Below are positions 16,745 through 40,935 of a stretch of 64,000 nucleotides of DNA, piece after piece. Below the pieces are notes generated by a model. The model was not told where the DNA came from. It did not search any database and was given only the letters and a program-made list of their open reading frames with translations. How positions within the stretch are numbered: position 1 is the stretch's first letter; every line of letters starts with the position of its first letter. The position numbers and the translations under genes were made by a program. The stretch lies in IMG/VR virus record IMGVR_UViG_2852885154_000004. One strand, given 5' to 3'. The DNA comes from a virus.

Positions 16745-16748
16745 CTTC

Positions 16749-20272: not shown

Positions 20273-20311
20273 ATTTCAAATCCTTTCTTTGCATGTCTAC
20301 AACAGTACGTA

Positions 20312-20959: not shown

Positions 20960-21063
20960 CTCAATTTATTATGTTGAGGGGAAAATCCCCTCTTAATTTG
21001 CAGTAACCTTAACATTAACAATTTGTAATCCCTGCTAACGCCCCTAGTCCTGCAATAACTCAC

Positions 21064-21884: not shown

Positions 21885-21895
21885 TTATTTCTCCT

Positions 21896-23209
21896 TTACC
21901 TTAAACAATCTATATTTGCGATCCTTTGGAGCTTATCCAAGTAATAGAATTTAAGTGTTCCAACTGCTCCATCTCTTTGCTTCGCTATTATCCATTCAAT
22001 AATATTTCTGTCTTCTGTTTCTTTGTTGTAATATTCATCACGATACAAGAACATTATCAAGTCTGCATCTTGCTCAATATTCCCAGATTCTCTTAAATCC
22101 GCCAATGTTGGTCTCTTATCTGCCCTCTCTTCAACTTTTCTAGATAATTGTGATAATACGATTACTGTTACTTCCAATTCTTTAGCCATCATCTTTAATT
22201 GCCTTGTAACTTCACCAATATCTGACGATCTATTTCCAGTGTTAGGTATGTCCATTAACGTTAAGTGATCTACAATTACCACATCTAAACCATGAGTTTG
22301 TTTTACTGCTTTAGTCTTAGCTTTTATAGTTAATGTGTTTTGGTAGCTGCTGCAATCTGTAAATATTCCATTTCTCTTAGATAATTTGTTAGCTGCCATA
22401 AGTATTCTTTCAAACTCTTCTGCATTAAGTTTTCCTGTTTTTAATTTCTGTGCTTCAACATTTGAATTGAAAGCCAATCGCCTATTTCCCAATGCTGTCT
22501 CTACCATTTCCATTTCAAATACAAGCACATTATTACCGTTTTTCGCTAGTCCGTCAGCTATGTTTAACGCAGTAACTGTTTTTCCCATTGATGGACGAGC
22601 ACCTATTACAAATAAGTCTCCTTTATTCATTCCATTTGTTGCTCTATCAAAGTCATGAAATCCTGTTTTCATTCCTGGAATATCTCCACCATTAGCATAT
22701 CTTTCTTCTATCTTTGATATTGTGGCATTAAGTAACTGCGTATCATTTAGTATTTGACTTTTGTCTTCTGTTTGGATTAATTCATTTGACATTTTACTAA
22801 TTGAAACATCTGGTTTAATTTTATCGTCATACAATGCATTCATAGCTGAATTTAATGCTTTTATCGCCTTTCTTCTGAAGGACTTATCTTTTATAATGTC
22901 CACGTATTGTTTTACATTTAATTTAAACCCACCTGTCATTAGTTCTGTGAGGTATGAAACCCCTCCGACGTATACTAGACTATCTTTTCCTAAAACCTCT
23001 ATAATGGGCGTTATTCCTATTTCTTTTCCATCTGCAAATAATGCACACATTGCGTTAAATATTAATTGATGGCTTGATCTATAAAAATCATTTGTTTTCA
23101 ACTCATTTACTGCTTGTACCATTATCTTGGGGTTATAAAATATACCTGATAAGAGTTCTTGTTCAGCTCTTATATTTTGCGGTAGTATTTGTAACTGTTC
23201 TGTATCCAT
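21896..23209 (-). CDS. DnaB-like replicative helicase
   Basis: GARPSMGKT, LSQLSR, DLRESGNIEQDAD, AKQRDG. Confidence 0.93.
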   Translation of the reverse strand: MDTEQLQILPQNIRAEQELLSGIFYNPKIMVQAVNELKTNDFYRSSHQLIFNAMCALFADGKEIGITPIIEVLGKDSLVYVGGVSYLTELMTGGFKLNVKQYVDIIKDKSFRRKAIKALNSAMNALYDDKIKPDVSISKMSNELIQTEDKSQILNDTQLLNATISKIEERYANGGDIPGMKTGFHDFDRATNGMNKGDLFVIGARPSMGKTVTALNIADGLAKNGNNVLVFEMEMVETALGNRRLAFNSNVEAQKLKTGKLNAEEFERILMAANKLSKRNGIFTDCSSYQNTLTIKAKTKAVKQTHGLDVVIVDHLTLMDIPNTGNRSSDIGEVTRQLKMMAKELEVTVIVLSQLSRKVEERADKRPTLADLRESGNIEQDADLIMFLYRDEYYNKETEDRNIIEWIIAKQRDGAVGTLKFYYLDKLQRIANIDCLR

Positions 23210-23227
23210 CTAATCACCTCTATTTAG

Positions 23228-24034
23228 CTATTCATCAAATTGAAATGCATCATATTGTTTTTTATTGTTAGATATAGTTGTCTGGTTCTTATGGTCTTCT
23301 TTAAGCTCGAATATACCTTGCCAACAATGCTCTATGCTATTTTCTAAAATTTTAATTTGTATTTCTTCATTTTCCGATAAGCCCTTTAGTTTCTTAAGCA
23401 TTATCTGTAAAGCTCTATCCGTCATAGGTTTTTTAATTGACTTTCTCATTTTTATAAAATCAACTAAAGTGTTTCTCAATTCTTCATTACTGGTATAGTT
23501 ATTAATTAAAGAATCAATCGAAGTTATTTTTCTTTTTTTAGTTTTTTTATTTATATCTATATCTATATCTATATCTTTCTCTATCTCTTTCTCTATCTCT
23601 ATCTCTGTGTAACAAAAAGTAACAGGTGGTAACTCTTCGGTAACATTGTTACCACTCTCTATTAATTTTTTATTCTTAAAGCGTTTATTTCTCATTAGTT
23701 GAGCCTTATCTGTTTCTTTCCCTATTGATGTTGGAACCTCATTTAAAAGTAACTCTGAATCTGAAATTTCTTTCAGTAATCCGCACTTTTTTAGATACAT
23801 TAATACAAAACTTACATTATCTGAATCTTCATCTAGTTCTAAGGCTAATTCTTCCGCAAATGTTTCTTCTATTCCATCAAAATACAGCTTTCCTTCATCC
23901 TTAAGACTGAGCAATTGAAGCTTCAAATATATTATTGTGTAAGTATCTCCACCAGCTATTTTCCTTAGTTTCTTTATTTCTTTACCTTTGAAAAAATCCT
24001 TATTTAATTTAAGCCAATAGTACACTTTAGCCAT
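23228..24034 (-). CDS. Phage replisome organiser/initiator
   Basis: YYWLKL..DFF, GGDTYTIIYLKL N-terminal domain; EIEIEK linker. Confidence 0.85.
   Translation of the reverse strand: MAKVYYWLKLNKDFFKGKEIKKLRKIAGGDTYTIIYLKLQLLSLKDEGKLYFDGIEETFAEELALELDEDSDNVSFVLMYLKKCGLLKEISDSELLLNEVPTSIGKETDKAQLMRNKRFKNKKLIESGNNVTEELPPVTFCYTEIEIEKEIEKDIDIDIDINKKTKKRKITSIDSLINNYTSNEELRNTLVDFIKMRKSIKKPMTDRALQIMLKKLKGLSENEEIQIKILENSIEHCWQGIFELKEDHKNQTTISNNKKQYDAFQFDE
23553..23653. repeat. Candidate phage origin: GTAAC iterons plus TATATC/TCTATC hexamer tract
   Basis: GTAAC at 23609, 23619, 23629, 23640; inverted GTTAC at 23648. Confidence 0.6.
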
Positions 24035-24042
24035 TAAATCAC

Positions 24043-24828
24043 CTACAATTCTTCTATTGTTAAAATTTGAGTTACCTTATTATTAGCTCTGCAATAATCA
24101 CATAAACCACATGCAATTGGTTTTTCTTCTCCACTTTTAACTTTTATAATGCGCCCGATGTTGTACTCAATTTCCTCAAGCTTTGGTGTGGTATACCTTT
24201 CATCTACTTTAATTATTGCTTTAAGCGGATTATCATTCTTTTCTATTGCAACAATGTATGGAATTAAGTCTTTGCCAAATTGCTGCTTAATTAACTCTCT
24301 ATAAATTGCCATTTGTTCAACGTATCCATAATGTTCAATGAAAGTTAATCCACTATATTTTTTATGGATCCCTTGAGTTGTTTTTAAGTCTGTAAAAAAT
24401 CCTTTTTCTAAATTCAATACATCAACCATTCCACGCCACTTAATACCAAATAATTCGCCTTGAATGATTACTTCTTTTTTACCTTGCAAAAATTTCATAC
24501 AATTCGAATCATCTGCTAAGGACTTAACCATTGTTTCAGCTACTTTAAAAGTTGATTTTAATTCCCCTTTAGTTTTGCCTTGAGTTGAATATAAGCTTGG
24601 ATTTTCTTTTTTAAAATCATCTAAAGTTCCTTCACTCCATGAATGAATATATTTGCCTAATAGAAATGCATCACTTTCACTCTGTTTATATTCCCCTTTT
24701 AGCTTTGCCATAGCCATTAATTCACATTGCTTAAATAGTTTGTATTGTGATACTGACATAGTACTTAAATCGGCTTCTATGCTGTAATAATTCTCTTTAG
24801 TTATCACCATATTCATTAACCTCCTCAA
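24043..24828 (-). CDS. PD-(D/E)XK exonuclease (RecE-like partner of RecT)
   Basis: MSVSQYK, VD....DLKT, QMAIY; adjacent to recT. Confidence 0.78.
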   Translation of the reverse strand: MRRLMNMVITKENYYSIEADLSTMSVSQYKLFKQCELMAMAKLKGEYKQSESDAFLLGKYIHSWSEGTLDDFKKENPSLYSTQGKTKGELKSTFKVAETMVKSLADDSNCMKFLQGKKEVIIQGELFGIKWRGMVDVLNLEKGFFTDLKTTQGIHKKYSGLTFIEHYGYVEQMAIYRELIKQQFGKDLIPYIVAIEKNDNPLKAIIKVDERYTTPKLEEIEYNIGRIIKVKSGEEKPIACGLCDYCRANNKVTQILTIEEL

Positions 24829-25630
24829 ATGGAGTATCTACAAAATCAGTTTGTTTAACAATGTCCTCATTCTCCTCTAATTCTTTTTCAAGATCACTTT
24901 TTTCGGTAGCAGCTTCTTTGGGTTTTTCATTTTCAAATTCCATATCCGAACCTTCTTCCCATGCTTCAAGCTGCTTAATATTATCAAAGTCAATATTTAT
25001 ATGTTTGCAAAGTCTTCTCAAAACAGTCTTTTTTGCCATTTCACCAAAGCTCTTTACCCATGCAGCAGAAAACTTCCCATACTTATCCTTTTTGCTCCAA
25101 TTGTCTCGAATATACTCAACCTCTTCCTTAGACATTGTTTCGTATTCCATCGCACCATCTTCGTAATAAACAACTGCAAAAACTCCCGTAATATCATCAT
25201 TATTAAATGGCTTTGGCTTAAAGTTTACATATGGCTTACCATGGTCAACACCTTCTTCAAACTCATCACCATAACGAACTAGCTTTGCATAAATATCCTT
25301 AATTTTTTTAGAACTAAACTTCCTAACAAGCTTGGTTTCGCCTTTGTAATCTGTCATAAATTCTGGTTTGCCCTTGTAGGTAATTACATAACACTCATTG
25401 TTAGCAAAATCTAAATCCAGATATGCTCCACGCATTATACATTTAGCAAGGTTAAACTCCTGCCCTTTCATATTTTCTAAGTTAACAGTATTTAAAACCC
25501 TTAAAACATTTTGCTTAAATCTAAGTCCATTAAAACCTTCTGGGAGTGCCTTCTTTTCTATTTCTAACATACTAGTTAATTTTTCATTTACTGCACCTAT
25601 TACATATTTTTGTACTTGATTATTTGCCAA
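24797..25630 (-). CDS. recT: RecT-family recombinase
   Basis: DYKG, W...FGEMAKKTVLRRLCK. Confidence 0.88.
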   Translation of the reverse strand: MANNQVQKYVIGAVNEKLTSMLEIEKKALPEGFNGLRFKQNVLRVLNTVNLENMKGQEFNLAKCIMRGAYLDLDFANNECYVITYKGKPEFMTDYKGETKLVRKFSSKKIKDIYAKLVRYGDEFEEGVDHGKPYVNFKPKPFNNDDITGVFAVVYYEDGAMEYETMSKEEVEYIRDNWSKKDKYGKFSAAWVKSFGEMAKKTVLRRLCKHINIDFDNIKQLEAWEEGSDMEFENEKPKEAATEKSDLEKELEENEDIVKQTDFVDTPFEEVNEYGDN

Positions 25631-25644
25631 TTACATCAACCTCC

Positions 25645-25821
25645 TTAAACTCTTTTATACATCCAATCATGATCATATTGATAAGTTGCACATGCTGGCT
25701 TATCCTTTTCTTCTCTTTCTTCCTCGTCATACCAAGTAAAATTTTTGATCTCTATAGTATCTAAAATGCATTCTCCATCCTTATAGTTAATACATGTCTT
25801 ACTATCGCATTTAATTGGCAA
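25645..25821 (-). CDS. Small Cys-rich protein (58 aa)
   Basis: TTG start; IKCDSKTCINYKDGEC; read by hand. Confidence 0.5.
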   Translation of the reverse strand: MPIKCDSKTCINYKDGECILDTIEIKNFTWYDEEEREEKDKPACATYQYDHDWMYKRV

Positions 25822-25871
25822 CTTGCATTATCTCCTTTCTGTGTTATAATGTACTTGATTTATTTGCTATG

Positions 25872-26051
25872 CTATCTTGGAATACTTTGGTCGGTTTCCT
25901 TGGTAGCTTTTTTGTTTTTACTGCCACATTGTCCATAATCATCTGTTGCAATAATAAATTCAGTAATAACAATTTTGGGTTCATCCTTTATGCAGACATA
26001 ATCACCTTCGCCTATATATGTGCATTCATCACAATCTTCACATTTTTTCAT
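25872..26051 (-). CDS. Small Cys-rich protein (59 aa)
   Basis: MKKCEDCDECTYIGEGDYVC; overlaps upstream stop. Confidence 0.55.
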   Translation of the reverse strand: MKKCEDCDECTYIGEGDYVCIKDEPKIVITEFIIATDDYGQCGSKNKKATKETDQSIPR

Positions 26052-26488
26052 ATCCTAGACCTCATTTCTACAACAATCAATTCATCTAGTTGCTGACTTA
26101 TTTTAATAGTTGTGTCAGATTGTGGTCCATTTACTGAAATACTAATATGCATCCTTTCCCTTAGTTCATCGATAGCTTGTTCAATTATTGATTTACTTAA
26201 ATCACAAGCTTTGAACTTAACCATAATACCTTCTCTTTTGACGTCTTCTAGCTCCTCAATTTCCAATGTTTCAGCTCTTCTGTAATAAGGTCCATTATCT
26301 ACTCTTATTGATTTTACTTGCACACCTTGCGCCTCTAATCTTTGCTTTAAATCTAATGCACTTGTAATCTCATCTTTTTCAATTTTAGTAAGTAATGCAT
26401 CAACCTCTTTTTCATTTAGATTTGTTTCAATATCAATGAAGTTTAATCTATTTACTGTCTCATCAACGTGTAATCTGTATTTTTGCAT
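26048..26488 (-). CDS. Hypothetical protein with C-terminal Spo0E-like domain
   Basis: IDELRERMH...TIKISQQLDELIV matches the Spo0E SQELD pattern. Confidence 0.6.
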   Translation of the reverse strand: MQKYRLHVDETVNRLNFIDIETNLNEKEVDALLTKIEKDEITSALDLKQRLEAQGVQVKSIRVDNGPYYRRAETLEIEELEDVKREGIMVKFKACDLSKSIIEQAIDELRERMHISISVNGPQSDTTIKISQQLDELIVVEMRSRI

Positions 26489-26507
26489 TTTATAATTCCT
26501 CCTCAAT

Positions 26508-26909
26508 CTATGAATTGCTAACTTCTTTAAACGATACTTGTCCTGAAAGTTCATCTCTTCTTCTTTGAACTTTTTTCTTAGAAATGTTAAGACCTTTATA
26601 TTTTTTATTTAACTGGATTTCAATATTTTTCAACGCTTTTAGATCAGTTGTAGTTTCGATATTAAAATATTTTGAATTTCCGCTATCATCTTTGCAGCTA
26701 AAACAAGTTCTAACGCCTTTATTATCACGATATGTTGCCATTAAGTTATTGGCTGTCCTTCTTAACGCTTGCTCCCTAAGTTTACGGATATTAAATATAT
26801 AGTGTGGTCTTAATAGCTCTACAACATCATCTGTAGTTATTTCTCCGCCAAGCTCGTCCATCTGCTCTAGTATCTTTTCTTTGGCCTTTTTTTCTAATGC
26901 TTCACTCAT
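26508..26909 (-). CDS. Hypothetical protein coupled to ParB-like gene
   Basis: ORF with GGAGG RBS. Confidence 0.55.
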   Translation of the reverse strand: MSEALEKKAKEKILEQMDELGGEITTDDVVELLRPHYIFNIRKLREQALRRTANNLMATYRDNKGVRTCFSCKDDSGNSKYFNIETTTDLKALKNIEIQLNKKYKGLNISKKKVQRRRDELSGQVSFKEVSNS

Positions 26910-26910
26910 A

Positions 26911-27891
26911 TTATTTACCTCCTTTAAAATAGTTCTGTATCTTAATTAAATTTTGGATAGCTGAATTAATATCTTGTAACTCTATTTCTACAATATCTGG
27001 AGTATTAGCTATTGCTCCCCATGCCATTAATGCCTCTATGTCTGTACTTAATAATGCTACTTTACTAATTGCATCACGATATTTTTTAGAATGCTTTATA
27101 CAGTCATTAAATTGATCCTTTGTTAGGTTATTGAAGTCTTCAATTCCAAAAATATGAGTCTCCTTTGGTTTCCTGAATTTATCTAGTACAACCGCATTCT
27201 CAGGAAGGTTTTTCTCAATTTCTCCTAGCTTTCTTTGTGCTTCCTGTTCTTGCTGTTCTTTTTCTAATTGCTCCTGGTACTCTTTTTCATATTCAGCATT
27301 CTTTTTATCTGCCTCTATAGCTGATTTAGTAAGAACATAAGCACTATTAATTGTTATGTCTCCTTTTTTAACCTGCTGCTTAATTTCTTCTGGAGCTTTT
27401 TCTTCGATAACTTCAACTTTGTGAATTGTATCTTCTGAAACTCCTGCTATCTTTGCAACTTCTTTTCTAGTGCTTATCGGTTCAATCGCCTTTGATGATT
27501 TCATCAAACCCGATTTAGCATTTTCGCTCTTTTTATCTCCTCCTACTTTTGATAGGTTTTCTTTTGCCTTAGCTTCTATTACTGGCTTAAACTTCAGTGC
27601 TATTTGTGCTAACTCATATTTAGTTAAATTCCTTCTATTCTTTTGATTCATCCAAATCCATTCCATAGCCTCGAGCCTGTCCTTAAATTCAATTTCAACT
27701 ATATCGAATGGAATATTATTTCTTGTGCATATCTCATGCCTATGATGACCATCTATCAAAATGTTCTTCCATACAGTTAGCGAATTTATGCAACCATTTT
27801 TAATTATGTCTCTTTCAAGCTCTTCCTTTTGTTCCTCTGATAATGGAGGTAGTAAGTCTTTAAACTCATTGTCAATAATCAAATCATTCAT
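26911..27891 (-). CDS. ParB-N/Spo0J-like protein with HTH
   Basis: LIDGHHR, NQKNRRNLT, VAKIAGVS. Confidence 0.8.
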   Translation of the reverse strand: MNDLIIDNEFKDLLPPLSEEQKEELERDIIKNGCINSLTVWKNILIDGHHRHEICTRNNIPFDIVEIEFKDRLEAMEWIWMNQKNRRNLTKYELAQIALKFKPVIEAKAKENLSKVGGDKKSENAKSGLMKSSKAIEPISTRKEVAKIAGVSEDTIHKVEVIEEKAPEEIKQQVKKGDITINSAYVLTKSAIEADKKNAEYEKEYQEQLEKEQQEQEAQRKLGEIEKNLPENAVVLDKFRKPKETHIFGIEDFNNLTKDQFNDCIKHSKKYRDAISKVALLSTDIEALMAWGAIANTPDIVEIELQDINSAIQNLIKIQNYFKGGK

Positions 27892-28023
27892 TTTTATAAT
27901 TTCCTCACTTCCTTCTATACTTAAATTTAATATTTACTCTTAACAGAAAATTACTGGATGTAATTGCTTTGAGTTGTAAGACGTGATAAATAAGATTTGT
28001 TATATCAATCTCAAAAATGATTA

Positions 28024-28134
28024 CTAAGCATACGTTTTTAAAAATTCCTGCACTGCTAAAGTGAATCTCCTATCAAATTCTTCTTTAGAAATCATCCAAA
28101 TTAAATTGATTTCTCTCCCTTTCTTTTTAGCCAT
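28024..28134 (-). CDS. Small early protein (36 aa)
   Basis: AGGAGA RBS; MAKKKGREINLIWMISKEEFDRRF. Confidence 0.45.
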   Translation of the reverse strand: MAKKKGREINLIWMISKEEFDRRFTLAVQEFLKTYA

Positions 28135-28240
28135 GAATATTTCTCCTTTGTCTACCTAATTTATCTTGTAAAAATCACTTCTTCTATTGCTCCATGATTA
28201 AATGAACTTTGATTACCGATTTTCTTACGCCAACTTTCAA

Positions 28241-28429
28241 TTACTCATCTGTGAAATGTGTAATTGAAACATCAAAGTAGTTTGCAATCTTTTGCAATTT
28301 ATCTATTTTAGGAGTACTTCTACCAGTTTTCCAATCACTCAAAGTTGATGTTGGAATTCCTGTTTCCTTTGCAACCCTATAGGCTGTTACGCTATTTTCT
28401 TTCAAAAGTTCTGCGAACTTACTATACAT
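28241..28429 (-). CDS. Cro-like XRE regulator
   Basis: XRE HTH; first lytic gene, divergent from the repressor. Confidence 0.85.
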   Translation of the reverse strand: MYSKFAELLKENSVTAYRVAKETGIPTSTLSDWKTGRSTPKIDKLQKIANYFDVSITHFTDE

Positions 28430-28465
28430 AATTTATCTCCTTTCATAAATTTATGTAAAAAACTC

Positions 28466-28494
28466 TTGTTACTATTCCGGAAATGTGATATAAT
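28466..28494 (+). promoter_or_regulatory. SigA-type promoter toward repressor
   Basis: TTGTTA-17-TATAAT with extended TG. Confidence 0.6.
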
Positions 28495-28582
28495 TTCATT
28501 TGTCAGGAACGAAAAATATCACAGAATACCGTGAATAGCAACTTTCTTAGTTAACTAGCTAGGTTTTCTTAGCTATGTTCTA

Positions 28583-28611
28583 AGTATATTCCGTTTTTCT
28601 TAGATAGTCAA
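28583..28611 (-). promoter_or_regulatory. SigA-type lytic promoter toward cro
   Basis: TTGACT-17-TATACT on minus strand. Confidence 0.65.
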
Positions 28612-28669
28612 TACTTTTTAAGAAAGTTTTCTTAGATATTTTTTTATATTTTTTTAAGGAGAATAAAAG

Positions 28670-29104
28670 ATGTATGAAATATTTGAAAAATTGATGAAAG
28701 AAAAGGGAGTTACGCCTTATAGAGTTCATAAAGAAACTGGAATAGCTACTTCTACACTTAGCGACTGGAAAAATGGGAAAAGCACTCCAAAGCAAGACAA
28801 ATTGCAAAAAATAGCAGATTATTTTAATGTCTCACTTGATTATCTAGCCGGAAATTCTAAAGGTAAAAATACAAAAACTAACGAAATTGAATTATCAAAA
28901 AAAGCTGAGAGAGATATTCAGAAATCTATAAGTCAAACATTAGATATGTTAGAAAATTCCCAAGATGGACTAATGTTTGATGGAGAACCTTTAGAATTAG
29001 ATGATTTGACAAAAGAATTGTTAAGACAAAGTTTAGAAAATTCTATGAGAATGGCTAAAAAGATAGCCAAAGAAAAATACACACCCAAAAAATATAGAAA
29101 ATAA
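28670..29104 (+). CDS. CI/ImmR-like repressor
   Basis: XRE HTH; GLMFDGEPL...KKYTPKKYRK tail; upstream of ImmA. Confidence 0.88.
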   Translation: MYEIFEKLMKEKGVTPYRVHKETGIATSTLSDWKNGKSTPKQDKLQKIADYFNVSLDYLAGNSKGKNTKTNEIELSKKAERDIQKSISQTLDMLENSQDGLMFDGEPLELDDLTKELLRQSLENSMRMAKKIAKEKYTPKKYRK

Positions 29105-29125
29105 TTAAAGGCGGGATTATGGGGT

Positions 29126-29566
29126 ATGGATGATTTTATAATTAGAGAGGTTGAACGCCTAAAGAAGAAACATGGCACTAACAACCCATTCGATATAGCA
29201 GAAGCAGAAAAAATTATTATTTATCGAGAACCGTTAGGTTCAATTCGAGGATATTATAATAAATATGTTCGTCAAAAAAATATTCACATAAATTGTGACT
29301 TACCAGAAAGGCAACAGTATGTAACATGCGGCCATGAATTAGCACACGCTATAATACATCCTAATGCTAACACACCATTTTTTAGAAGCAATACATTTTA
29401 TTCTATAAATAAGTTAGAGCGACAAGCAAATAAGTTTGATGCATATTTATTATGTGATATGAAATGCATAGATAGATATTTATTAGAAAATTGCTCTTAT
29501 GAACAAATAGCTTCAATCTTAAATCTCCCTATAGAACTAATAAAGATAAGATTCAATATTTTATAA
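29126..29566 (+). CDS. ImmA/IrrE metallopeptidase anti-repressor
   Basis: GHELAH and ERQAN motifs. Confidence 0.88.
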   Translation: MDDFIIREVERLKKKHGTNNPFDIAEAEKIIIYREPLGSIRGYYNKYVRQKNIHINCDLPERQQYVTCGHELAHAIIHPNANTPFFRSNTFYSINKLERQANKFDAYLLCDMKCIDRYLLENCSYEQIASILNLPIELIKIRFNIL

Positions 29567-29593
29567 TAACAACTTAAGAAAGGAGTTATATTT

Positions 29594-31030
29594 ATGCGAA
29601 TAGCGGCATATCTAAGAAAGTCAGTCAAAGGTGATGAGAATAGTATTTCTATAGATGCACAGCTTGAAATAATAAAGAATTACTTTAATAAAGAGAAATG
29701 TAAATATATAGTCTATACTGATGATGGTTTTAGTGGAGGCAGCACAAATAGACCTGCATTTCAAAAAATGATAGATGATGCTCATAATAATAAATTTGAT
29801 GCTGTTGCTTGTTATAAACTTGATAGAATGGCTAGAAACACTTTAGATTTTTTAAATACATTTGATGAATTACAAAAAATTGGAGTTGACCTTGTTTGTG
29901 TACAAGATAATTATGACCCAAGAACTCCGGCAGGAAAGATGATGATGACCTTGTTAGCTTCTTTAGCTGAAATGGAAAGAGAAAATATAAAAAGACGTGC
30001 TATTGATGGTATGTATAGTTTAGCTAAACAAGGTCGTTGGAGCGGAGGAACTCCGCCTTATGGTTGTGTTGCTTCTGAAGGAATTGGAGGTAAGTATTTG
30101 GAAATTGAGAAAAAAGAGGAAATTCTATATATTTTTAACCAATTTTCTATTGGTAACTCTATGTGGAAGATTTCTAAAGAAGTTGGAATAACACCTAGAA
30201 ATTTAGGAACTGTTTTGAGAAATCCTATTTATTTAATATCAGATGCAATTTCTAATAAATACTTGTCTACTATTGGATATAAAGTAATCGGAGAACCTAA
30301 TGGTAATGGCTATATGACTTATAAATACAACAAGTTTATAAAAGATAAAATGGTTAATTTGGCGGTGATAACACAAAATAAAGGAATAATCAACTCTACT
30401 CTTTGGATAAAGGTTAGAGAAAGGCTAAGGGCATTGGAACATGTACCGCCTAGAATATCTACTAAAAGTTGGCTAGCACATAAAATCATATGTAAACAAT
30501 GTAATAAAATAATGAGCATAAACTATGGAAGCATAAGAAAAGATGGAACTAGACCTATGTATTTTAGATGCAAGAAAAATTGTTTTTCAGGAATAAGAGT
30601 TGATGAAATAGAAGATAAAATTTTTTCTACTTTAAAAAACGGAAATCTTGAAAAGATACTAAATAAAAATGATGAAAATATTGAATTTAATATTGCTGAA
30701 AATATAGAAAAACAACTTAAGAAAAAGAAAAAGATGTATGATGGTTTTTTAGAAAAGTCTGCTCTTGCTTCAACTGCTGTTGCAAAATCTATGTTAGACA
30801 AAGCAGAACAACTCTCACTCGAAATTGAAGAACTAAATGTACAATACACTAAATATCAAATAGTTCTAAATAACAAAAGCAAAAAAAATGAAATGCTTAA
30901 AAACAAAGAACTGGCTAAAAATGAGTTTATAAAACATTTTAATAAAATAAACTTAGAGGATAAACAAAATTTGATAAATATAATTTTTGATAAATTAGTA
31001 TGGGATGGCGATAATCTCTTGATTTATTAG
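29594..31030 (+). CDS. Large serine recombinase (integrase)
   Basis: YLRKS, DDGFSG, YKLDRMAR, EMERENI, GGTPPYG, CxxC zinc ribbon. Confidence 0.95.
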   Translation: MRIAAYLRKSVKGDENSISIDAQLEIIKNYFNKEKCKYIVYTDDGFSGGSTNRPAFQKMIDDAHNNKFDAVACYKLDRMARNTLDFLNTFDELQKIGVDLVCVQDNYDPRTPAGKMMMTLLASLAEMERENIKRRAIDGMYSLAKQGRWSGGTPPYGCVASEGIGGKYLEIEKKEEILYIFNQFSIGNSMWKISKEVGITPRNLGTVLRNPIYLISDAISNKYLSTIGYKVIGEPNGNGYMTYKYNKFIKDKMVNLAVITQNKGIINSTLWIKVRERLRALEHVPPRISTKSWLAHKIICKQCNKIMSINYGSIRKDGTRPMYFRCKKNCFSGIRVDEIEDKIFSTLKNGNLEKILNKNDENIEFNIAENIEKQLKKKKKMYDGFLEKSALASTAVAKSMLDKAEQLSLEIEELNVQYTKYQIVLNNKSKKNEMLKNKELAKNEFIKHFNKINLEDKQNLINIIFDKLVWDGDNLLIY

Positions 31031-31053
31031 TTAGTGCAATTTAAAACTTTCTG
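31031..31053. other. att half-site (phage arm) of prophage A
   Basis: TGCAATTTAAAACTTTC-TG, inverted match to the right arm. Confidence 0.65.
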
Positions 31054-31138
31054 GATCTTCCAACGTCGTTATATTTAAAGCCTTGGAATCTATTTCTTTC
31101 AATATTGTGTAGATTGTAGTAGTTTTCCCAGAACCGGT
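31052..31138 (-). pseudogene. 87-bp internal fragment of a PilB/ComGA/GspE-type ATPase gene
   Basis: Translates to TGSGKTTTIYTILKEIDSKALNITTLEDP (Walker A to first Asp box). Confidence 0.85.
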
Positions 31139-31161
31139 TGCAACCTGTATAAAAGTGCAAC
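31139..31161. other. att half-site (phage arm) of element B
   Basis: TG-CAACCTGTATAAAAGTGCAAC; reverse complement contains TGCACTTTTATAC. Confidence 0.65.
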
Positions 31162-31426
31162 ATTTAAAAGTGTATTCGAGCTATTTACTGTTAATTATAG
31201 GGAATTTTTAGCTAATGCTATTTTTAATGACCTTGAAGATAATATAACAAACAGAATTCGTAAGCTTAGATATCTTAGCGGACTTTCCCAGATTGAATTC
31301 GGTAAAAAGATCAATAGAAAAGTAACCACTATTGGTCAATGGGAAAGAGGAATTTTTAATCCAAGTTTGCCATCAAAGAAGAAAATAATTAAAGCATTCA
31401 ATCTTCCTAAAAATTATCTTGATTAA
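31141..31426 (+). CDS. XRE-family HTH ORF lacking a canonical start codon
   Basis: ITNRIRKLRYLSGLSQIEFGKKINRKVTTIGQWERG; no ATG/GTG/TTG between in-frame TAA 31076 and the HTH. Confidence 0.7.
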
Positions 31427-31585
31427 ATTTCTTATATTATAATGTAGGAAAATTTATATTTAGACTTTTATGGTAATTTAATTAGAAAAATAAAACAAAA
31501 AGGAGTATATTAAGATAATTTTTAATTATCCTGATATGCTCCTTTTCATACATTCTATTTTAGCATTGTATAGATATTTCACTTA

Positions 31586-31987
31586 TCATTTTTGTTCATT
31601 AATTATTTTGTGAACAATACCAAGCGCAATATTCAATTCCTTAGCAATGCTCCTTATATTTGATCCTTGCTTTTTTAAATCCAATACTTTATTTCTTAAT
31701 TCATCCGATACAGGTTTTCTTCCAACAATTTTTGACTTCTTTACTATATGAACTTTACTTTTCTGTTTTTCGCGAAAATATAAATTCTTATACTTTTCAA
31801 GTTCGGATTTTAATAATTCCATATTATCTAATAGAATATCATATTCCTTGGAACTAATAACATTTGTATCAACTTTTATTTCTTCTATTTCGTTATATAG
31901 TCTAACATTATCTTTGGTTAGTAACTCTATTTTATCTTTATATAAACTAATTCGTTCTTGTAATTCTTCAATGGTCCAATTCTCCAT
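31586..31987 (-). CDS. Coiled-coil protein with resolvase-type C-terminal HTH
   Basis: GRKPVSDE...GSNIRSIAKELNIALGIVHKII. Confidence 0.65.
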   Translation of the reverse strand: MENWTIEELQERISLYKDKIELLTKDNVRLYNEIEEIKVDTNVISSKEYDILLDNMELLKSELEKYKNLYFREKQKSKVHIVKKSKIVGRKPVSDELRNKVLDLKKQGSNIRSIAKELNIALGIVHKIINEQK

Positions 31988-32334
31988 TAATATTCCCCCG
32001 TTCATAAATTAACTTATGATTATATTATGCTCTTTATTGTCTAAGTGTTTAATAATTCATTAATGAACACTTAATATTATGTGGAAGAGTAACAAAATAA
32101 GAAATACTATAACATTTTATTATTAATTTTAAGCGTATAAAAATATAAAGTTTTTCTAAATATGTAATTTTAGAAATTTTTAAATATACACTGAACACAA
32201 ATTTGCATACGTTCATAGTGTTAAATAATATTTAAACTATAAAAAATACCGCAAATTCATTTTTGAATACTACGGTATTTTTATATCCATTATTTTCATT
32301 AAATTTATTCTTTATTAGCACAATTTATTTTCCC

Positions 32335-33012
32335 TTAAAATTCTAAAGACTTTACAAAATCTTTACTTTGCAATATATTCAAGAATTTAATTATATTAAA
32401 TGATTCATATATTCTTATCACTATTTTCAAATCAATTAATAAGGATTTTTCATCTCTTTTGCTCTTTAAATTAATTATAGTTATCTCATTATCTTCAAAT
32501 ATTTCTTGAAGAAATTTAATAGCATCTGGCTCATCCACAATCTGCAACGCTAATGACTCTGTCCTTGGAGATGATAAAAATTTAATTTTACCATGCAAAA
32601 GTATTTGTCCCAATATAGTAATAGCAGTAGCTGCTATCCCAACAAAATAAAGTCCAGAACCTATAGCTAAACCTATAGCAGCTGTAGCCCAAACTCCTGC
32701 TGCCGTTGTTAATCCTACTATTGTTTGTTTTTGCATAAAAATTATCCCTGCACCAAGGAATCCAACTCCTGTGACAACCTGAGCTGCTATACGTGATGGA
32801 TCAAGAGACATATTGAGCCATCCTATCTGATCTTGAAATCCATATTTCGATATAATCATTATAAGTGCTGCCCCTATAGCTACAATAAAATGTGTTCTAA
32901 TTCCAGCCTCTTTCATTCGATTCTTTCTTTCATATCCAATAGCCATCCCACATATTGCAGCAATAAAGAGCCTTAATAAATAATCTAATTGCATTAAATA
33001 TAGTTCATTCAT
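32335..33012 (-). CDS. MgtC/SapB-family membrane protein
   Basis: IGYER, AGIRTH, DPSRIAAQVVTGVGFLGAG, GLTTAA. Confidence 0.92.
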   Translation of the reverse strand: MNELYLMQLDYLLRLFIAAICGMAIGYERKNRMKEAGIRTHFIVAIGAALIMIISKYGFQDQIGWLNMSLDPSRIAAQVVTGVGFLGAGIIFMQKQTIVGLTTAAGVWATAAIGLAIGSGLYFVGIAATAITILGQILLHGKIKFLSSPRTESLALQIVDEPDAIKFLQEIFEDNEITIINLKSKRDEKSLLIDLKIVIRIYESFNIIKFLNILQSKDFVKSLEF

Positions 33013-33261
33013 ATTTTATACTCCTTCTATCCTATTACCTCTGCTATATTAGGATATTATACCATATTTTGTATCTAACTACTATTTTATGGACCTCATT
33101 ATTCAATCTTCATATGATGCATATTAGAATTAATGTTCGTGTTGTACAAATTTTACGAATTTCAAAATACAAATCTAACGTTATAAATTCAAACTAAAAA
33201 ATCTCTCGTATTATCTAAATACAAGAGATTTACTAATTAACCAATACTTTCGCAATACGAA

Positions 33262-33489
33262 TTAATCGGTTTTCTTTTTATTAGGTTCGTATTTTAATAT
33301 ATCTGTAAGATCACATCCTACCACTTCACATATTTTATCAATATGATCTAAATTCACCCTATTATTTAATTCATGATAAAGTTCCGAAATAGTATTAGGC
33401 CTTATTTCAGTTTTTTTAGCCAAATAAGCTTGAGTCCATCTTTTTTCCCCTAATACTCTAGATAAACAAATTCTTATCATATGTGTCAT
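33262..33489 (-). CDS. Cro/C1-type HTH regulator
   Basis: LAKKTEIRPNTIS, DKICEVVGC.LTDIL. Confidence 0.8.
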   Translation of the reverse strand: MTHMIRICLSRVLGEKRWTQAYLAKKTEIRPNTISELYHELNNRVNLDHIDKICEVVGCDLTDILKYEPNKKKTD

Positions 33490-33677
33490 CTCCTATACCA
33501 GGAATTATAAATTTATTTACTATAAAAATTTCTATATACTTATCCCAATAACGAATACTGATATAAAATATCACATTACGTTATTGGGTGATTTCTAAGA
33601 AAACTCTAAATCTTCAATTTGATTTTAACATAATATATAATTTCTAATGATAATTTGTTATTAAATATCTTTTTACG

Positions 33678-33881
33678 TTAATTCATTATAAATCTTCTTA
33701 TTGAATTAAATATTTTTAACTTAAGTTCATCATCTTCCTTAGCTTCTTCAAATACTATTCCTAAATTATTCTTATTATATAGATCACTGTAATTTAGTTT
33801 TAAATATTTCTCCACAGCACTTACTAAATTTATATCTAATTCTTTATCTTTTATTACCATAGCTATCATTCCTTTTATCAC
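33678..33881 (-). CDS. Small hypothetical protein, possibly SOS-regulated
   Basis: ORF; LexA box upstream. Confidence 0.5.
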   Translation of the reverse strand: MIKGMIAMVIKDKELDINLVSAVEKYLKLNYSDLYNKNNLGIVFEEAKEDDELKLKIFNSIRRFIMN

Positions 33882-33996
33882 AACATTATTAGAAAAATAA
33901 ACTTTACCATATTTTAAATAGTATCCACTTACATCCTTCTACCATACTTAAGTTCAATATTTTCTCGATTCCTTTAATAAAATCCACGTCTTATGC

Positions 33997-34008
33997 AAAC
34001 ATACGTTC
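33997..34008. promoter_or_regulatory. LexA (SOS) box
   Basis: GAAC-GTAT-GTTT on minus strand. Confidence 0.55.
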
Positions 34009-34261
34009 TCATAAATATATTATATTTAACCTTCGTTATCTTGTAAAGAAAATTTTCCTCTTACTTTTTCCATATAATCATTTATTTTCTTTAAATTCAT
34101 ATGTTTTTATCCAGAAAATATATTATTACATAATGCAAATTATCGAAATGAAATGATAGAAACTTAATGATTTTCCCATAATTATATTTGTATTTATTTT
34201 ATAGAATATTAATATATGGATATAAAAAATCAGCAGACATAATGACTACTGATTTATAAAT

Positions 34262-35209
34262 TTAATTATCTTTTTTATTAGTTTTTTTAGGAGCTATGTC
34301 ATTAGCCTTATCAACTGGCTTAACATTGAATGTTATATTTGTTCCATCACTTGTTGCTATTACTGTTCCCTCTAAATCTGTTCTAAATACATTAATATTT
34401 TTAGCATTTAGTTTATCTAAAGTTTCTTCGTGTGGGTGTCCATAATCATTACCTTTTTCACAACTTATAACTGCATATTTAGGGTTTACTTTATCTAAAA
34501 ATGCTTGAGTTGTAGACGAATGACTTCCGTGATGCCCAACCTTTAGAACATCAGCCTGTATATCTAATTGTTTTTGTAGTATCTCCCCCTCACTTACATC
34601 TTCCGCATCTCCCATAAATATAAATGAATTATTACCGTATTTTAATTTGCAGACAATAGAATAATTATTTAAATCTTCATACTTAGCACTATTAGGAGCT
34701 AAAAATGTTAATGTTGCGTCTCCTACCGTAATTTGATCTCCTACTTTTGGTACATTCATTTTCAAGTTTTTGTTTTTTAAAGCATCTACCATATTCTCAA
34801 ATGTCTTAGTTGTTGTTGTTGCTTTAGGTGCATAAAAAGTTCCAACTTTTAAATTATTGATAACATCATCCATACTTCCAATATGGTCTTCATGTGGATG
34901 AGTAGCAATTGCATAATCTATTGTAGTGACTCCAATTGATTTAAGATAATCTAAAGCCTTCTTATCACTAGTTCCTGCGTCAATTAGAATGTTCTTTCCA
35001 TCAACTTGAATTAATTCTGAATCTCCCTGACCAACATCTATATAATGTATCTTTAAATCTCCTAAAGTTTTTTGAGTTTCTATTTTTGTTTCTGCAGTAG
35101 CTGCTGTATTATTAGTATTATTGACTTGTGAGCTCTTACCACATGATATTAGAAACAATGAAAATAATAAAGTTAGTAATAAGCTAATGATTTTTTTAGT
35201 TTTTGTCAT
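34262..35209 (-). CDS. ComEC/Rec2-type MBL-fold lipoprotein (probable nuclease)
   Basis: Lipobox LISC; DVGQGD, THPHEDHIG, GHHGS, YGHPH, RTD. Confidence 0.88.
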   Translation of the reverse strand: MTKTKKIISLLLTLLFSLFLISCGKSSQVNNTNNTAATAETKIETQKTLGDLKIHYIDVGQGDSELIQVDGKNILIDAGTSDKKALDYLKSIGVTTIDYAIATHPHEDHIGSMDDVINNLKVGTFYAPKATTTTKTFENMVDALKNKNLKMNVPKVGDQITVGDATLTFLAPNSAKYEDLNNYSIVCKLKYGNNSFIFMGDAEDVSEGEILQKQLDIQADVLKVGHHGSHSSTTQAFLDKVNPKYAVISCEKGNDYGHPHEETLDKLNAKNINVFRTDLEGTVIATSDGTNITFNVKPVDKANDIAPKKTNKKDN

Positions 35210-35371
35210 TTTAATCCCCCTTTGTCTACTATTATTGTATATTCTTTCTATATTGTGTCAATAATTATTTATTGAAGAAAGCATAATTGATTCCACCTAA
35301 TAAAAATAGAGGATAGTACTCAAAAACATTTAGTACTACCTCTATTTTTTTATATATTATCCTTTATTATA

Positions 35372-35821
35372 TTAATAACATTTTTCACAAGCTCTATCCC
35401 CTGCCTTTTGAGCATCAGCTAAAGACATAGTAGTATAATATTTCATACCATGTGCATTTGGACTTGAATGATATATACCATTCTTTGATACATATACTGT
35501 TTGACTTTGGTCGTTACTAGTATTAGTATTGCTTGCTGTACTTCCACTACTACTGCTGCTATCTGAAGGAGGAGTTGTCCACGCTCCATCTCCACGTAAA
35601 TAATAATCTCCAATATAACAATTTTTAGCCATGTAACCATTAGAATAGAAATAATACCAATTTCCATCTATGTATCTCCATCCAGTAGCCCATGAGTTTC
35701 CTTCAGTATACCACCATCCTGTAGAATTATTTTTCCATTCTGCATGTGCTGCTAATGGCGTTGCTGCTAATATTGTTATTAATGTAACAAAACTAGCTAT
35801 CAATCTCTTAAAGTTTTTCAT
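35372..35821 (-). CDS. Secreted cell-wall-binding repeat protein
   Basis: Signal peptide; WYYFYSNGYM repeats; C-terminal YH...ACEKC. Confidence 0.8.
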   Translation of the reverse strand: MKNFKRLIASFVTLITILAATPLAAHAEWKNNSTGWWYTEGNSWATGWRYIDGNWYYFYSNGYMAKNCYIGDYYLRGDGAWTTPPSDSSSSSGSTASNTNTSNDQSQTVYVSKNGIYHSSPNAHGMKYYTTMSLADAQKAGDRACEKCY

Positions 35822-35998
35822 TAAAACATCCCCCTTAAATTTTATCTTTTCATAACCTTATTTCTACATTTTCTCCAAAATTCCTTTAATATACATATTG
35901 ATAATATCAAGTAAATTATGGTGTTTTGTGAAAATTAATTAATATAAGTATTACTGATTGTAATATATCTACTATTTATAAAAGAATTATAAAGTAAG

Positions 35999-36262
35999 TT
36001 ATCTCTTATGTTTAAGAATTAAATCTGCACTAAATGTTCCAACTAATGATATACCCGTATAAACAAAACACCATATTAGAAAAGTTGTATTAAATAAAAC
36101 AAATGTAGCAATTAAATACCATATAAAAATAATGCTTAAAACAATTACTTTTTTCTTAATTAAAAGTTGTAAAATTAGAGATATAATAAATGTAAGTAGT
36201 GGAAAGATAATTAATATCATCCCAAATGGATTATCATTAATACTAAAATTAGACATAAACAT
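35999..36262 (-). CDS. Small 3-TM protein (DUF2651-like)
   Basis: Hydrophobic; FNTTFLIWCFVYT. Confidence 0.6.
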   Translation of the reverse strand: MFMSNFSINDNPFGMILIIFPLLTFIISLILQLLIKKKVIVLSIIFIWYLIATFVLFNTTFLIWCFVYTGISLVGTFSADLILKHKR

Positions 36263-36454
36263 TTCCCCCCTTTAATACAAGTAATATTAATAAAACAACT
36301 ACATATCTCTCTTCTTGACCTTATTAATAAATTTGAGTTATACTAATTATGCAAAATGGACTGGTGGCAGCTACGGCTGCCGCTTTTTTAATTATTTCAA
36401 AATATTTTTATACATAAAAATAAAGCTAGGAAATTAATCCTAGCATATAGAATA

Positions 36455-36868
36455 TTATTTAATTTTCATAAATGCATCTTCATATTTTTTAGCCTCATCT
36501 GGATTTAATTTTTTATCAAGTCTTAATAATGCTCCTGTATCATTTACGTAGTTATATTCAGCTACTAAAGGCATTTTCTTACCAATATTATCAATGTATT
36601 CTTTTCTATTAGTGGCGTCTTCCTTATTAGCAAATACCTCTATGCTACCATTGGTAAAAGTTACTTTAGATGTATATTGATTTGGTCTACCCAACAACTG
36701 ATTTTTATCATTTTCGGTAGTTGTGACTTCCATATTCTCAATAGTAACTCCAGCATCTTTTAGCTTATTTCCATATTCTTCAGCTGTATATTTCTTTGCT
36801 GAGCTCCCACAACCTACTATAGTAAATAGTAATAAGCTGCATAATAAAATACTAAGTATTTTTTTCAT
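36455..36868 (-). CDS. Lipoprotein (phage moron type)
   Basis: Lipobox IVGC; LLGRPNQYTSK. Confidence 0.75.
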   Translation of the reverse strand: MKKILSILLCSLLLFTIVGCGSSAKKYTAEEYGNKLKDAGVTIENMEVTTTENDKNQLLGRPNQYTSKVTFTNGSIEVFANKEDATNRKEYIDNIGKKMPLVAEYNYVNDTGALLRLDKKLNPDEAKKYEDAFMKIK

Positions 36869-37826
36869 TATTATTCCCCCTAAATGTTCTTCTAAATATA
36901 ATTGTATATTATTTGGTAACTTTGTCAAATATAATAAGATCTAAATTATTAGCTGTATTATAAAAGAAAGTCATATTAGGATAAATTTGGTAGTAATTTT
37001 ATTGTTAGTATGTATTAATTTCAGTGAATATTTTTTAATTATTTAGAAATAATATAAATGTCCAAATTTAAATATATAAAGAGATAGCAGTTCTCCGTTT
37101 CCCCTGCTATCTCTTTTTGTATTTTTTATTCTGAATTAAGTATCTTTTAACTGAACAGTTCTGCAAAATCAAATAGCAACAAACAAAAAACTTGCCTGCT
37201 GCTATTGACATATAGATATATTAAAATACTTACTTTCACATTTTACCATTATATTTCAATAAAGTAAATAGTGACAAAAAATGCGGTCGAATCAATGGCT
37301 GCATTTTTATATGTATGCTTTAGGGTTTATGGTATATAAGCATATTATCATGAAAATAAGTAACTATTACTCTATTTAATGTCACCATTCAACTTTTCCA
37401 GTATAGTCAGTTTTTTAATTTATCCTCATTAATAATACTACTGCTTTTTTGTTTTCTTATAATCAATGTATATAATCTTAATGTTATGCTAATAATATAA
37501 CTGCTCCAATCTATGGATTTAAACATAAAAAAGAGATAGCTTTACTGTCATGCACCTGATTCTTTCGCTATCTCTATTTTGGTGTAAAATAAAGGGTAGA
37601 CTAAGTATTTTTACTTAATCTACCCTTTATTGGTGTTTGTTGACAATAGAGTGGATATAATCATAATAACATACCATTATAGAATAATCTATATTAATTA
37701 AACCTTCTTCTATATTATGATATAAATGAAAATACAGCCAACTCAAAGGCTGCATTTCTTGTATGTACTTTTGTTTTTTTCAATGGATCTCTATCATTTT
37801 ATCATACTAATATAAAAAGTTCCATA

Positions 37827-37976
37827 TTATCTATCTATTAATTCATTCTTAATATACTCATTAATAGTCTCTTCTTCACCTTTAAATATTTCTGTTAAGT
37901 ATAATATTACTTCTTGTTCCCCTTCTGGAAGATCTCTTATTGTATCTTTGATTGTATCTATAGTTACATCTTTCAT
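37827..37976 (-). CDS. Small acidic protein (49 aa)
   Basis: AGGTGG RBS; MKDVTIDTIKDTIRDLPEGEQEVILYL. Confidence 0.55.
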   Translation of the reverse strand: MKDVTIDTIKDTIRDLPEGEQEVILYLTEIFKGEEETINEYIKNELIDR

Positions 37977-38197
37977 AATAAAATCACCACCTTGATGTTA
38001 TTATGAGATATTATATTACATAAATCCCAAATAATCCATAGTATAAATATTGGTAATTTACTAATACTATAATTGCTAATCTTTTATAGCTTGGCAGGTT
38101 GCCAAAAGACAGTAAATTAATTAATAGTTTGCTGTCTTTTGTTCCATATAATAAATTTTTTATCATATATATTACCCTTTTAATGATGATAAAACTA

Positions 38198-38401
38198 TTA
38201 TTCTATAATCAATATAGTTTCATCAGTATTAAAAATGATATCTTTCACAAATGCAAAAATAATTGTTTTTCTGTATTCACATGCAATTTCATTTATTAAA
38301 TTTATTTCTTCATCTGCTAATCTACTCTTATAAACCATTATAGTTTTATAATCACTTTCTATAATAGCCGTAATTATTTTTCTTACATATAAGTTATACA
38401 T
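38198..38401 (-). CDS. Small hypothetical protein
   Basis: AGGAG RBS. Confidence 0.55.
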   Translation of the reverse strand: MYNLYVRKIITAIIESDYKTIMVYKSRLADEEINLINEIACEYRKTIIFAFVKDIIFNTDETILIIE

Positions 38402-38628
38402 TTCTATATTTCTCCTTTTACCATCCTAATAGTTTATCAAATTTCATCCTATTTTATTACTAAAATTTTATTTGCTATGAGAAATATTAATTAATAACTA
38501 AAATGTAAGATTTCGCTATATAAAATTAATATACTTTGTTCTTTTTCTTAGAATTTCCAATATAATAATAGTGGTTGGGTATTCTTGGTCCGTATATGTA
38601 TATATACTTAAAAGGGGTTGTACTTTAT

Positions 38629-40088
38629 TAATCTGATACCTATGTCAAGGACAATATAAAAAAGAGTGTTAAGCGCATAAAAGATGGTTTCTGTATTGAA
38701 CAGGAGTCATCTTTTTCAAATCCCATTTATACCTATAATTGTTATAATATATTATATACTTGTCTATTTTCCTTTTAAGCTCCTCAAAAGTTTTGCATAT
38801 TTTTGTTTTAACAGAATCTTTTAAGTGTCCGAAAAAAGATTCTTGAGGTGCATTGTCCCAACAGTTTCCACGTCGTGACATTGACTGTCCTAAGCGTCTT
38901 TTCTTTAATAAATCTTGAAAAATAGGACTTGTATAATGGCATCCCTGATCGGAATGGACGAAGGCATTTTCATGCAACTTGACTCTTCACTGCTTCATTA
39001 GTTTACCAATTGTTTCAGTTGCTATATCAATTGTAATTCTTTTAGATATGTGATGAGCTAATACCTCACCAGTTGATGCGTCCAGAATGGTCGATAAATA
39101 GGCCATATTGTTTCCGTTGTATGGCAAGTATGTAATGTCAGTTAGTAATACTTTTCCAGGTATCTCTTGTTTGAAGTTTCTTTCTAAAATATTAGGGAAT
39201 GTTCTATGCTCTTTAGTAGCTTTGGCCATCTGCTTATATGGGTTTGCTTTTCTATGGGGACATATAATATTATACTTCTTCATTATTCTTTGTATTTTCT
39301 TAAGACTATAAACTGTATTAAATTCATTCTCTAAAATCATTTTTATAGAGCGAGAACCTTTCTTATATCCACGGCGATTAAATGCTTTTAGGATAATATT
39401 CTTGGCTTTTAAATCATTCTTTTCACGAGCTATTCTATTTTCTTTTGAATTAATATAATTGTAAAATCCCGATCGTGAAACAGCTAACAGCTCACAGAAA
39501 TATCCTGTTAAGTTTTTAAATTTGTTTTCTTTTATTGTAATATGTATTAATTTAAATATATCAGAAGTTTTTAGATTCTTACTTTTGTTTATCAACAACC
39601 TTTCTGTCACGTCTAATTTTTTTAGCAGTTCTACCTGCGATTCAAGCAACTTTATTTTTGCTTCTTGTCTTTCGATTATTTCTTCTTTACTCAATTCTCT
39701 TGAACGAGGACGCCCGCTAGTGCGCTTTCGGCTATCATCTAATCCTAAAATTCCATCTTTGTCATATAAAGTCTTCCATCTAGCAGCTGATTGTTCAATT
39801 CTTTTCAACCCTATTATATTAATATCAAATCCATTTTCAGCAAATATTTCTCTAGGCAGTTTGCCAGATGTGTATTCTTCAATAAAGAGTCTTTTGAATT
39901 CATCTGTATATGTTATTGAGCGTTCACTAACTCTAAGAATATTAACATTTTTCTTTAAGTTTATAATGTCCTCTTTAGTAAATAAAATCTTACTCATGTT
40001 CATCCTCCGTTGTTATTTCTATTATATAAAAAAACACCTACAGACTAAACACTTTTTTTCATGTGTCCAGTCTATAGGTATCATTTTA
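38629..40088 (-). mobile_element. IS3-family insertion sequence with 3-bp target duplication (TAT)
   Basis: Imperfect terminal IRs TAATCTGATACCTATGTCAAGGACA / TAAAATGATACCTATAGACTGGACA; TAT at 38626-38628 and 40089-40091. Confidence 0.85.
38669..40003 (-). pseudogene. IS3 transposase with in-frame nonsense codon
   Basis: TDITY / HSDQG / DNAPQESFF DDE motifs lie in one frame broken by TGA at 38987-38989. Confidence 0.85.
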
Positions 40089-40883: not shown

Positions 40884-40935
40884 AAATAGAAGAAAATCAT
40901 ATCATTAAATCTAATACCCTAAATGGAGGATTATA

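Follow-up and report, generated by a model that had tools for sequence, protein, structure and literature searches.

Two unrelated prophages with sites 81 bp apart in a GspE/ComGA-type ATPase gene of Clostridium, probably an independent pile-up, and a predicted integrase-HTH fusion in the unintegrated form of one of them

The analysed window, a 64,000-nucleotide stretch of the IMG/VR virus record IMGVR_UViG_2852885154_000004, revealed two unrelated phages, each with its own serine integrase, inserted 81 bp apart in a single Clostridium GspE/ComGA-type ATPase gene. We consider this arrangement likely to be an independent pile-up in a heavily targeted gene, in which excision of the second phage would extend its integrase in frame by an HTH that is likely active only in the unintegrated state; the probability that we assign to this reading is roughly 0.78.

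The two prophages meet at 31052-31138. Prophage A (1..31055) runs past the left window end and contains tail, head, terminase, replication and lysogeny genes, as evident from a Pfam scan, the major head protein and the far junction found in run X1. Prophage B (31139..64000) runs past the right window end and contains accessory, lysis and tail genes, as assigned by the Pfam scan and by comparison with the provirus record G001. On the plus strand of prophage A, an HTH repressor-like gene and an IrrE/ImmA-like metalloprotease gene (28670..29566) precede integrase A (29594..31030), a 478-aa serine recombinase that stops short of the att site. The sole Pfam domain detected in integrase A was PF00239; serine 10 is present, and the XisF model aligned over 47-464 with a score below its cut-off. 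The G001 copy of integrase B contains the Resolvase (PF00239), Recombinase (PF07508) and zinc-ribbon (PF13408) domains, all above cut-off, and the two integrases are 28% identical over their full length. The closest named relative of integrase B (97%) is labelled Clostridium beijerinckii, and the host of the window DNA is therefore likely to belong to the C. beijerinckii group. In runs X5 and X6, integrase A abuts different upstream DNA at window position 29591, which indicates that different phage genomes share this integrase and its site.

Several further features were observed in the two prophages and among their relatives. The head region of prophage A includes a gene (6870-7250, minus strand) whose product has an anti-defence-like Acb2/Tad1 hairpin domain, and another gene of the same prophage (26048-26554, minus strand) has a Spo0E-like domain above the Pfam cut-off, a possible link to sporulation control. 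The left-end accessory genes of prophage B (32335-35821, minus strand) encode an MgtC family protein, a small HTH protein, a metallo-beta-lactamase-fold protein with a lipoprotein-like start and a choline-binding repeat protein. An IS transposase is present as two overlapping ORFs (38669-40003, minus strand) within prophage B, and G001 carries a different insertion at window 33234-33241. Relatives of integrase A at 33-41% identity (L001, L002, L073 and L076-L081) mostly split a gene at a VIIGGGW-SG motif, which we take to be typical of FAD-binding proteins, and relatives of integrase B (L068, L069, L071 and L121) split another host gene at a DTGH motif; both sets do so in both orientations.

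The host fragment between the prophages (31052..31138, minus strand) reads TGSGKTTTIYTILKEIDSKALNITTLEDP, and the window letters confirmed both this sequence and the TG dinucleotides that the initial annotation had noted at its borders. It comprises codons 228-256 of the ATPase gene, with 100% amino acid identity to the intact gene L014. The initial annotation had recognized the Walker A region of a PilB/ComGA/GspE ATPase, which agrees with our findings, as the best solved-structure matches of the 29-codon fragment were GspE/PilB Walker A regions (best E 3.4e-4) and the gene is intact in relatives. When a 136-base query across the junction was used, 35 of 381 scored family genomes matched, and the four best aligned to window 31051-31140 alone with 88-96% identity (best E 1.8e-35). 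Each of these four has an intact 454-aa T2SSE-family ATPase gene (PF00437 above cut-off) followed by a T2SSF gene. The ComGA model NF041000 (NCBIfam) gave a score of 288.4 against a cut-off of 300, and the GspE and PilB models were likewise below cut-off; because no NCBIfam cut-off was reached, we call the gene GspE/PilB/ComGA-type and file it only as a T2SSE-family ATPase. A longer PilB-like paralogue with an open frame of 564-586 codons was found in all five genomes checked; the split gene therefore need not be required for pilus function overall. A promoter scan around the junction remained at chance level (4 found versus 4.9 expected).

The far ends of both phages were taken from the contigs of run X1 and from G001. 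The X1 contigs are identical to the window across the junction and may be its source. When they were placed on the intact gene L014, four loose ends appeared, at positions 1501, 1510, 1581 and 1590, which correspond to both ends of both phages. As the initial annotation had supposed, these four junctions place prophage A at the EDP codon and prophage B at the GPT codon; the gene is in three pieces with the two phages between them. Both outer pieces were found where they had been predicted, the 3' piece in X1 starting at EDP beyond the left end of A, and the 5' piece in G001 ending at G-P beyond B and adjoining a second serine integrase. G001 represents a different strain, with 80-99% identity over its matches to the window, and its order is the 5' 689 bases of the gene, the second serine integrase (integrase B), the 73.3 kb phage B, the fragment and integrase A. 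For the window strain, the position of the far end of B is based on a 30-base loose end and on this different strain. The two long gene pieces in X1 have no gaps relative to the intact gene, 17 of the 20 listed ORF differences are silent, and none of the 20 is a stop. In-silico excision joins were open in G238, G305, G323 and G372, as well as between the G001 5' piece and the fragment; precise excision would therefore restore the frame. No excised joint was seen in the contigs searched, a type of assembly that drops rare forms, and pattern scans of viral contigs found neither the ATPase fragment nor the far arm of A.

To place the crossover cores, each attP was rebuilt and arm symmetry was scored by position. 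For site B, five elements gave the core AC (31137..31138, minus strand; codon 228, the T of GPT), with symmetries of 19, 16, 18, 17 and 16 of 26 and a next best value of at most 12. For site A, the core GA (31056..31057, minus strand; codon 255, the D of EDP) scored 16 of 24 when the X1 loose end was used, versus at most 9 elsewhere, and 20 of 26 in G372. The seven rebuilt attP sites thus showed 16-20 symmetric matches at one position each; among 5000 random joins of window DNA, 25 reached 16 and none reached 19. The two cores are 81 bp apart on the gene strand. TG/TG cores 87 bp apart, as originally suggested, were ruled out by arm symmetry, and the apparent end of similarity at the TGs arises from the phage arms, each of which repeats a few bases of the host past its core. 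The phage arm of junction A (31031..31055, minus strand) has a TGCA motif 17 bases from the core and is symmetric with the far arm from X1. The phage arm of junction B (31139..31165, minus strand) also has TGCA 17 bases from its core; the same arm occurs in L018, L019 and L036, and its inverted partner is present in G001 and X1. The inverted arms pointed out in the initial annotation do exist, in that the 13-base arms starting at 31035 and 31147 agree at 10 of 13 positions, but they are not partners, as they belong to two different attP sites. Since the cores GA and AC differ, cross-recombination should be blocked, judging from how serine integrases work, and each integrase would use its own site.

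On the B side of the junction, we found a 95-codon frame (31139..31426, plus strand) with an HTH_3 domain (PF01381 above cut-off) and no ATG, GTG or TTG ahead of the domain. In G001, the integrase B ORF crosses the junction and ends at a stop codon that lies in host DNA, a few codons further on. When the circle (attP) form was joined in silico, the integrase B frame continued in frame into window 31139-31426, so that the start-less frame becomes the C-terminus of integrase B. Natural counterparts of both forms were found through the integrase B cluster, whose listed members (15 of 40) include 573-aa lysogen forms such as P0121 and a 664-aa protein ending in the HTH (P0124, WP_173717617.1). P0124 is recorded on five contigs, the longest of which is chromosome-sized, and this suggests a tandem prophage or an attP-type junction in a chromosome assembly. 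Phage CP51 encodes a 655-aa in-frame fusion with a symmetric att-like site within it. HTH-like sequence was present in the att-crossing frame of all five site-B elements with both ends available, and an att-crossing HTH frame was also found in G416, where a different host gene is split, and in L070 and TPELB_ph1 (free-form records). Pairwise dN/dS values for the HTH frame were 0.27-0.48, which are rough as dS is near 1. The lysogen form of integrase B retains all three core domains, and the C-terminal HTH alone is cut off. An ATG lies at the att site in G416, TPELB_ph1 and CP51, and the HTH might therefore also be made alone there.

Other searches with these sequences were less productive. A protein search with the HTH alone (122 candidates) returned no longer protein, the corresponding search found no viral locus, and a pattern scan of metagenome contigs for the attP junction of B found nothing. 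Searches of the atlas and the PDB yielded generic HTH proteins only, and the AlphaFold model of the 664-aa fusion had pLDDT below 50 over 556-647, which is uninformative for the HTH.

The route from the catalytic ORF to the HTH appears to differ among relatives. The fusion is in frame in the C. beijerinckii form and in CP51, which has no A8+ run, and the catalytic ORF of most relatives terminates directly behind an A run. A run of at least eight A was found at the ORF end in 22 of 32 family ORFs (12 viral loci plus 20 of 55 matches, from the top 25) versus 2 of 190 ORF ends in the background set, where one of the two possibly belongs to the family; the run was absent from the other 10 of the 32, a count that covers catalytic-ORF ends only. 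KKK or KKN lies within 12 residues of the end in 101 of 117 full-length top protein hits. Where enough sequence was present, the -1 frame was open for at least 22 codons in 16 of 17 cases, compared with 6 of 17 for the +1 frame, with several close relatives among them. TPELB_ph1 and L070 would reach the HTH through A9 and the -1 frame. A conserved slippery run followed by an open shifted frame, the pattern that we looked for as a mark of programmed -1 frameshifting or transcriptional slippage, was thus present, and most relatives are predicted to reach the HTH frame only through the A9 run and a -1 shift.

These arrangements suggest that unintegrated phage DNA would make Int-HTH, and that the lysogen would make Int without the HTH. 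We tentatively propose, at a little under even odds, that Int-HTH is the integrating form, whose HTH may bind phage DNA and so favour integration or signal the unintegrated state; integration would then remove the HTH, and the -1 shift at A9 would set the dose in most relatives. A broader version, which we likewise hold as possible but somewhat short of an even chance, is that the serine integrases of a widespread clade in clostridia can sense their own state: the att site would lie in a frameshift-extended frame, and an A9-dosed Int-HTH, made from unintegrated DNA only, would control the direction or timing of recombination. In the window, one such element would then be stacked with a second phage in a single competence-type gene. 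The genome paper on CP51 calls this phage temperate in its title. As it has the fused frame only and no A run, its fused form should be able to integrate, and this favours a phage-DNA-binding HTH over an RDF-like block or an incidental join. If the circle protein does differ from the lysogen protein, control of serine integrases would not be limited to the separate RDF but would include a further layer, and the truncated form may be what is obtained when enzymes are mined from annotated lysogens.

We also considered whether the HTH frame could be a small repressor gene of the usual kind, located by the att site and using a rare start codon, its in-frame join to the integrase being incidental. 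In lysogens, NCBI does annotate the HTH as a protein of its own, 93 or 112 aa long (P0131 and P0122), and TTG or ATG starts are present in G323, G305 and G416. However, the linker of 39 residues contains no conserved start, and four elements elsewhere, in addition to all five site-B elements, retain the att-crossing frame. The A run at most catalytic ORF ends and the excess of open -1 over +1 frames also speak against it, although several of these sequences are close relatives. We therefore regard this explanation as unlikely.

Another explanation is that the HTH is a recombination directionality factor, so that fusion on excision would give an excision-only enzyme that blocks re-integration, like the engineered integrase-RDF fusions. 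In the accessible parts of the relevant reports, an RDF fused to the C-terminus favours recombination of attL x attR and lowers that of attP x attB (PMC5737554; PMC12286644), and the RDF genes of SPbeta and phi3T sit in prophage flanking regions (PMC6957869). In contrast, the window HTH is without a common start codon in the lysogen, which is when an RDF would be needed. The in-frame fusion of CP51 also weighs against this explanation, which we find distinctly improbable, as a phage with no other form would hardly be temperate, as its paper title has it, if that form could not integrate.

To understand how the double insertion arose, we compared the occupancy of the two sites. B without A was found in G397, G305, G323, G238 and run X16; run X9, which lacks coverage over site B, was not counted for that site. 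Site A alone is occupied in G372, whose integrase is 59% identical to integrase A and whose element ends lie on different contigs. In a search of the genus, 119 of 122 scored genomes matched, and by a hand count among the matches listed about 107 of the 122 had a match without stops over sites A and B. Follow-up of five genomes whose best matches were weak showed breaks elsewhere in the gene in all of them, at about codon 229 (G365), 231 (G299), 288 (two genes in G358) and 307 (G311 and G291); the junctions in G299 and G365 differ from site B and were not counted as such. The break at about codon 307 adjoins a tyrosine integrase in viral locus L062 (1063-3218), G311 (L129) and G291 (L135), and in G358 two paralogous ATPase genes (L132 and L140) are both broken after an LRQD motif with the same sequence following. 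Serine and tyrosine integrases thus enter the ATPase gene at no fewer than five points, which makes it a hotspot. Such a pattern fits a benefit to phages from silencing the machinery of DNA uptake, and for solvent-producing clostridia the locus offers two integrase-att pairs that differ in their cores. No split genome followed up had A together with B. The A-fragment-B junction was found again in G001 and in runs X5, X6 and X7 (three other studies), so the double state is inherited or recurrent. A further break was found in X5, where the 3' piece resumes only at L014 1728; this is based on the loose end at 1728 only and not on the uncovered stretch of L014 1590-1728. G397 has a frameshift near codon 300.

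Single occupancy, the further break points and the extra breaks in X5 and G397 are what independent insertions in a favoured gene would give. The AND gate proposed in the initial annotation holds in that both excisions are needed to restore the gene, and this logical need is real; the evolved two-key switch that it implied is not supported, and any regulation would be hypothetical. In such a switch, the host or the phages would time both excisions, in a sporulation or competence window, and rebuild the ATPase as the skin, SPbeta and heterocyst elements do. Restoration of the frame by double excision, the intact look of the X1 gene pieces and the recurrence of the double junction in four other records are all compatible with it. 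Additionally, in the intact genome G307 the ATPase operon lies directly upstream of two neighbours, read from their translations, which we take to be efp and a spoIIIA-like cluster. Nevertheless, A and B both look like full phages, the gene is whole in most genomes of the genus with both sites never occupied together in the split genomes followed, X5 has a further break and G397 a frameshift, and the contigs gave no excised joint; a timed switch is thus very unlikely. Under the independent pile-up, the ATPase gene would be off in the double lysogen and would return only after the precise exit of both phages, most likely at induction and not on a developmental schedule. The remaining alternative, a single element with the 87 bp as part of its attP region and an intact host gene elsewhere, is scarcely credible even though the junction moves as one block in X5, X6 and X7, because no unbroken span of site A or B, and hence not the intact copy that the initial annotation had named as refuting its reading, was found among the X1 contigs listed, the four loose ends form two complete arm pairs, and each site is used alone in other genomes.

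Prophage insertion in a competence gene is known from Listeria comK. As far as the available parts of the sources go, competence genes are enriched among LSR targets (PMC10083194), and pneumococcal prophages disrupt comYC via attB-comYC (bioRxiv 2024.08.13.607808). The present locus is like these in having temperate phages in a comG-type pilus operon and unrelated integrases that converge on one gene, and unlike the cases in those parts in that two elements lie 81 bp apart in the same gene, in Clostridium. Another parallel is found in the heterocyst elements, for which the accessible text of PMC4874684 gives 10 of 87 genes cut by several recombinase elements, with up to four in one nifD. In both systems, one gene receives several elements at their own sites and all must leave to restore it (PMC4874684, as above). 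The heterocyst elements are excised during differentiation, whereas here the elements are whole-phage-like and their excision is predicted from in-silico joins.

The skin, SPbeta/spsM, phi3T/kamA, yin and PhiS63/sigK elements share with the present phages a large serine recombinase by a junction inside a coding sequence, and precise excision that restores the frame (PMC6957869, PMC5025042, PMC10747680 and PMC3442830, each in the part accessible). According to the same parts of these four sources, skin-type elements use a separately encoded RDF, mostly under sporulation control, and an att site inside the recombinase frame is not described there. At the A/B locus, no RDF or sporulation promoter was identified.

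An attP inside a phage reading frame has precedents. Myxococcus phage Mx8 has attP inside the gene of its integrase, a tyrosine recombinase, and in the mycobacteriophage attP-in-repressor systems attP likewise lies inside a phage reading frame. In archaeal SSV-type tyrosine integrases, attP lies inside the integrase gene and integration splits the enzyme into inactive halves (PMC7253208, accessible portion). As in all of these systems, so far as the sources at hand describe them, integration at the B site would change the protein; unlike the SSV-type and Mx8 tyrosine recombinases, integrase B is of the serine family and keeps its core domains, and most of its relatives need a predicted -1 shift. 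In the engineered integrase-RDF fusions, too, a serine integrase is extended at its C-terminus by a small protein (PMC5737554, in part); the integrase B fusion differs from them in being natural and built by recombination, with an HTH_3 partner whose RDF role is hypothetical.

Among the papers listed in searches of the mostly open-access literature, titles and the openings of abstracts mentioned neither an att-crossing, frameshifted HTH fusion in a serine integrase nor this Clostridium locus, and neither is described in the accessible portions of PMC6957869, PMC5025042, PMC3442830, PMC5027557, PMC10747680, PMC12286644 and PMC5737554. The CP51 genome paper may already mention an attP inside the resolvase gene. 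The splitting of one gene by several elements is already known, and the double split reported here is a further case; the predicted att-crossing Int-HTH frame, with its A9 shift, is the newer part of the finding.
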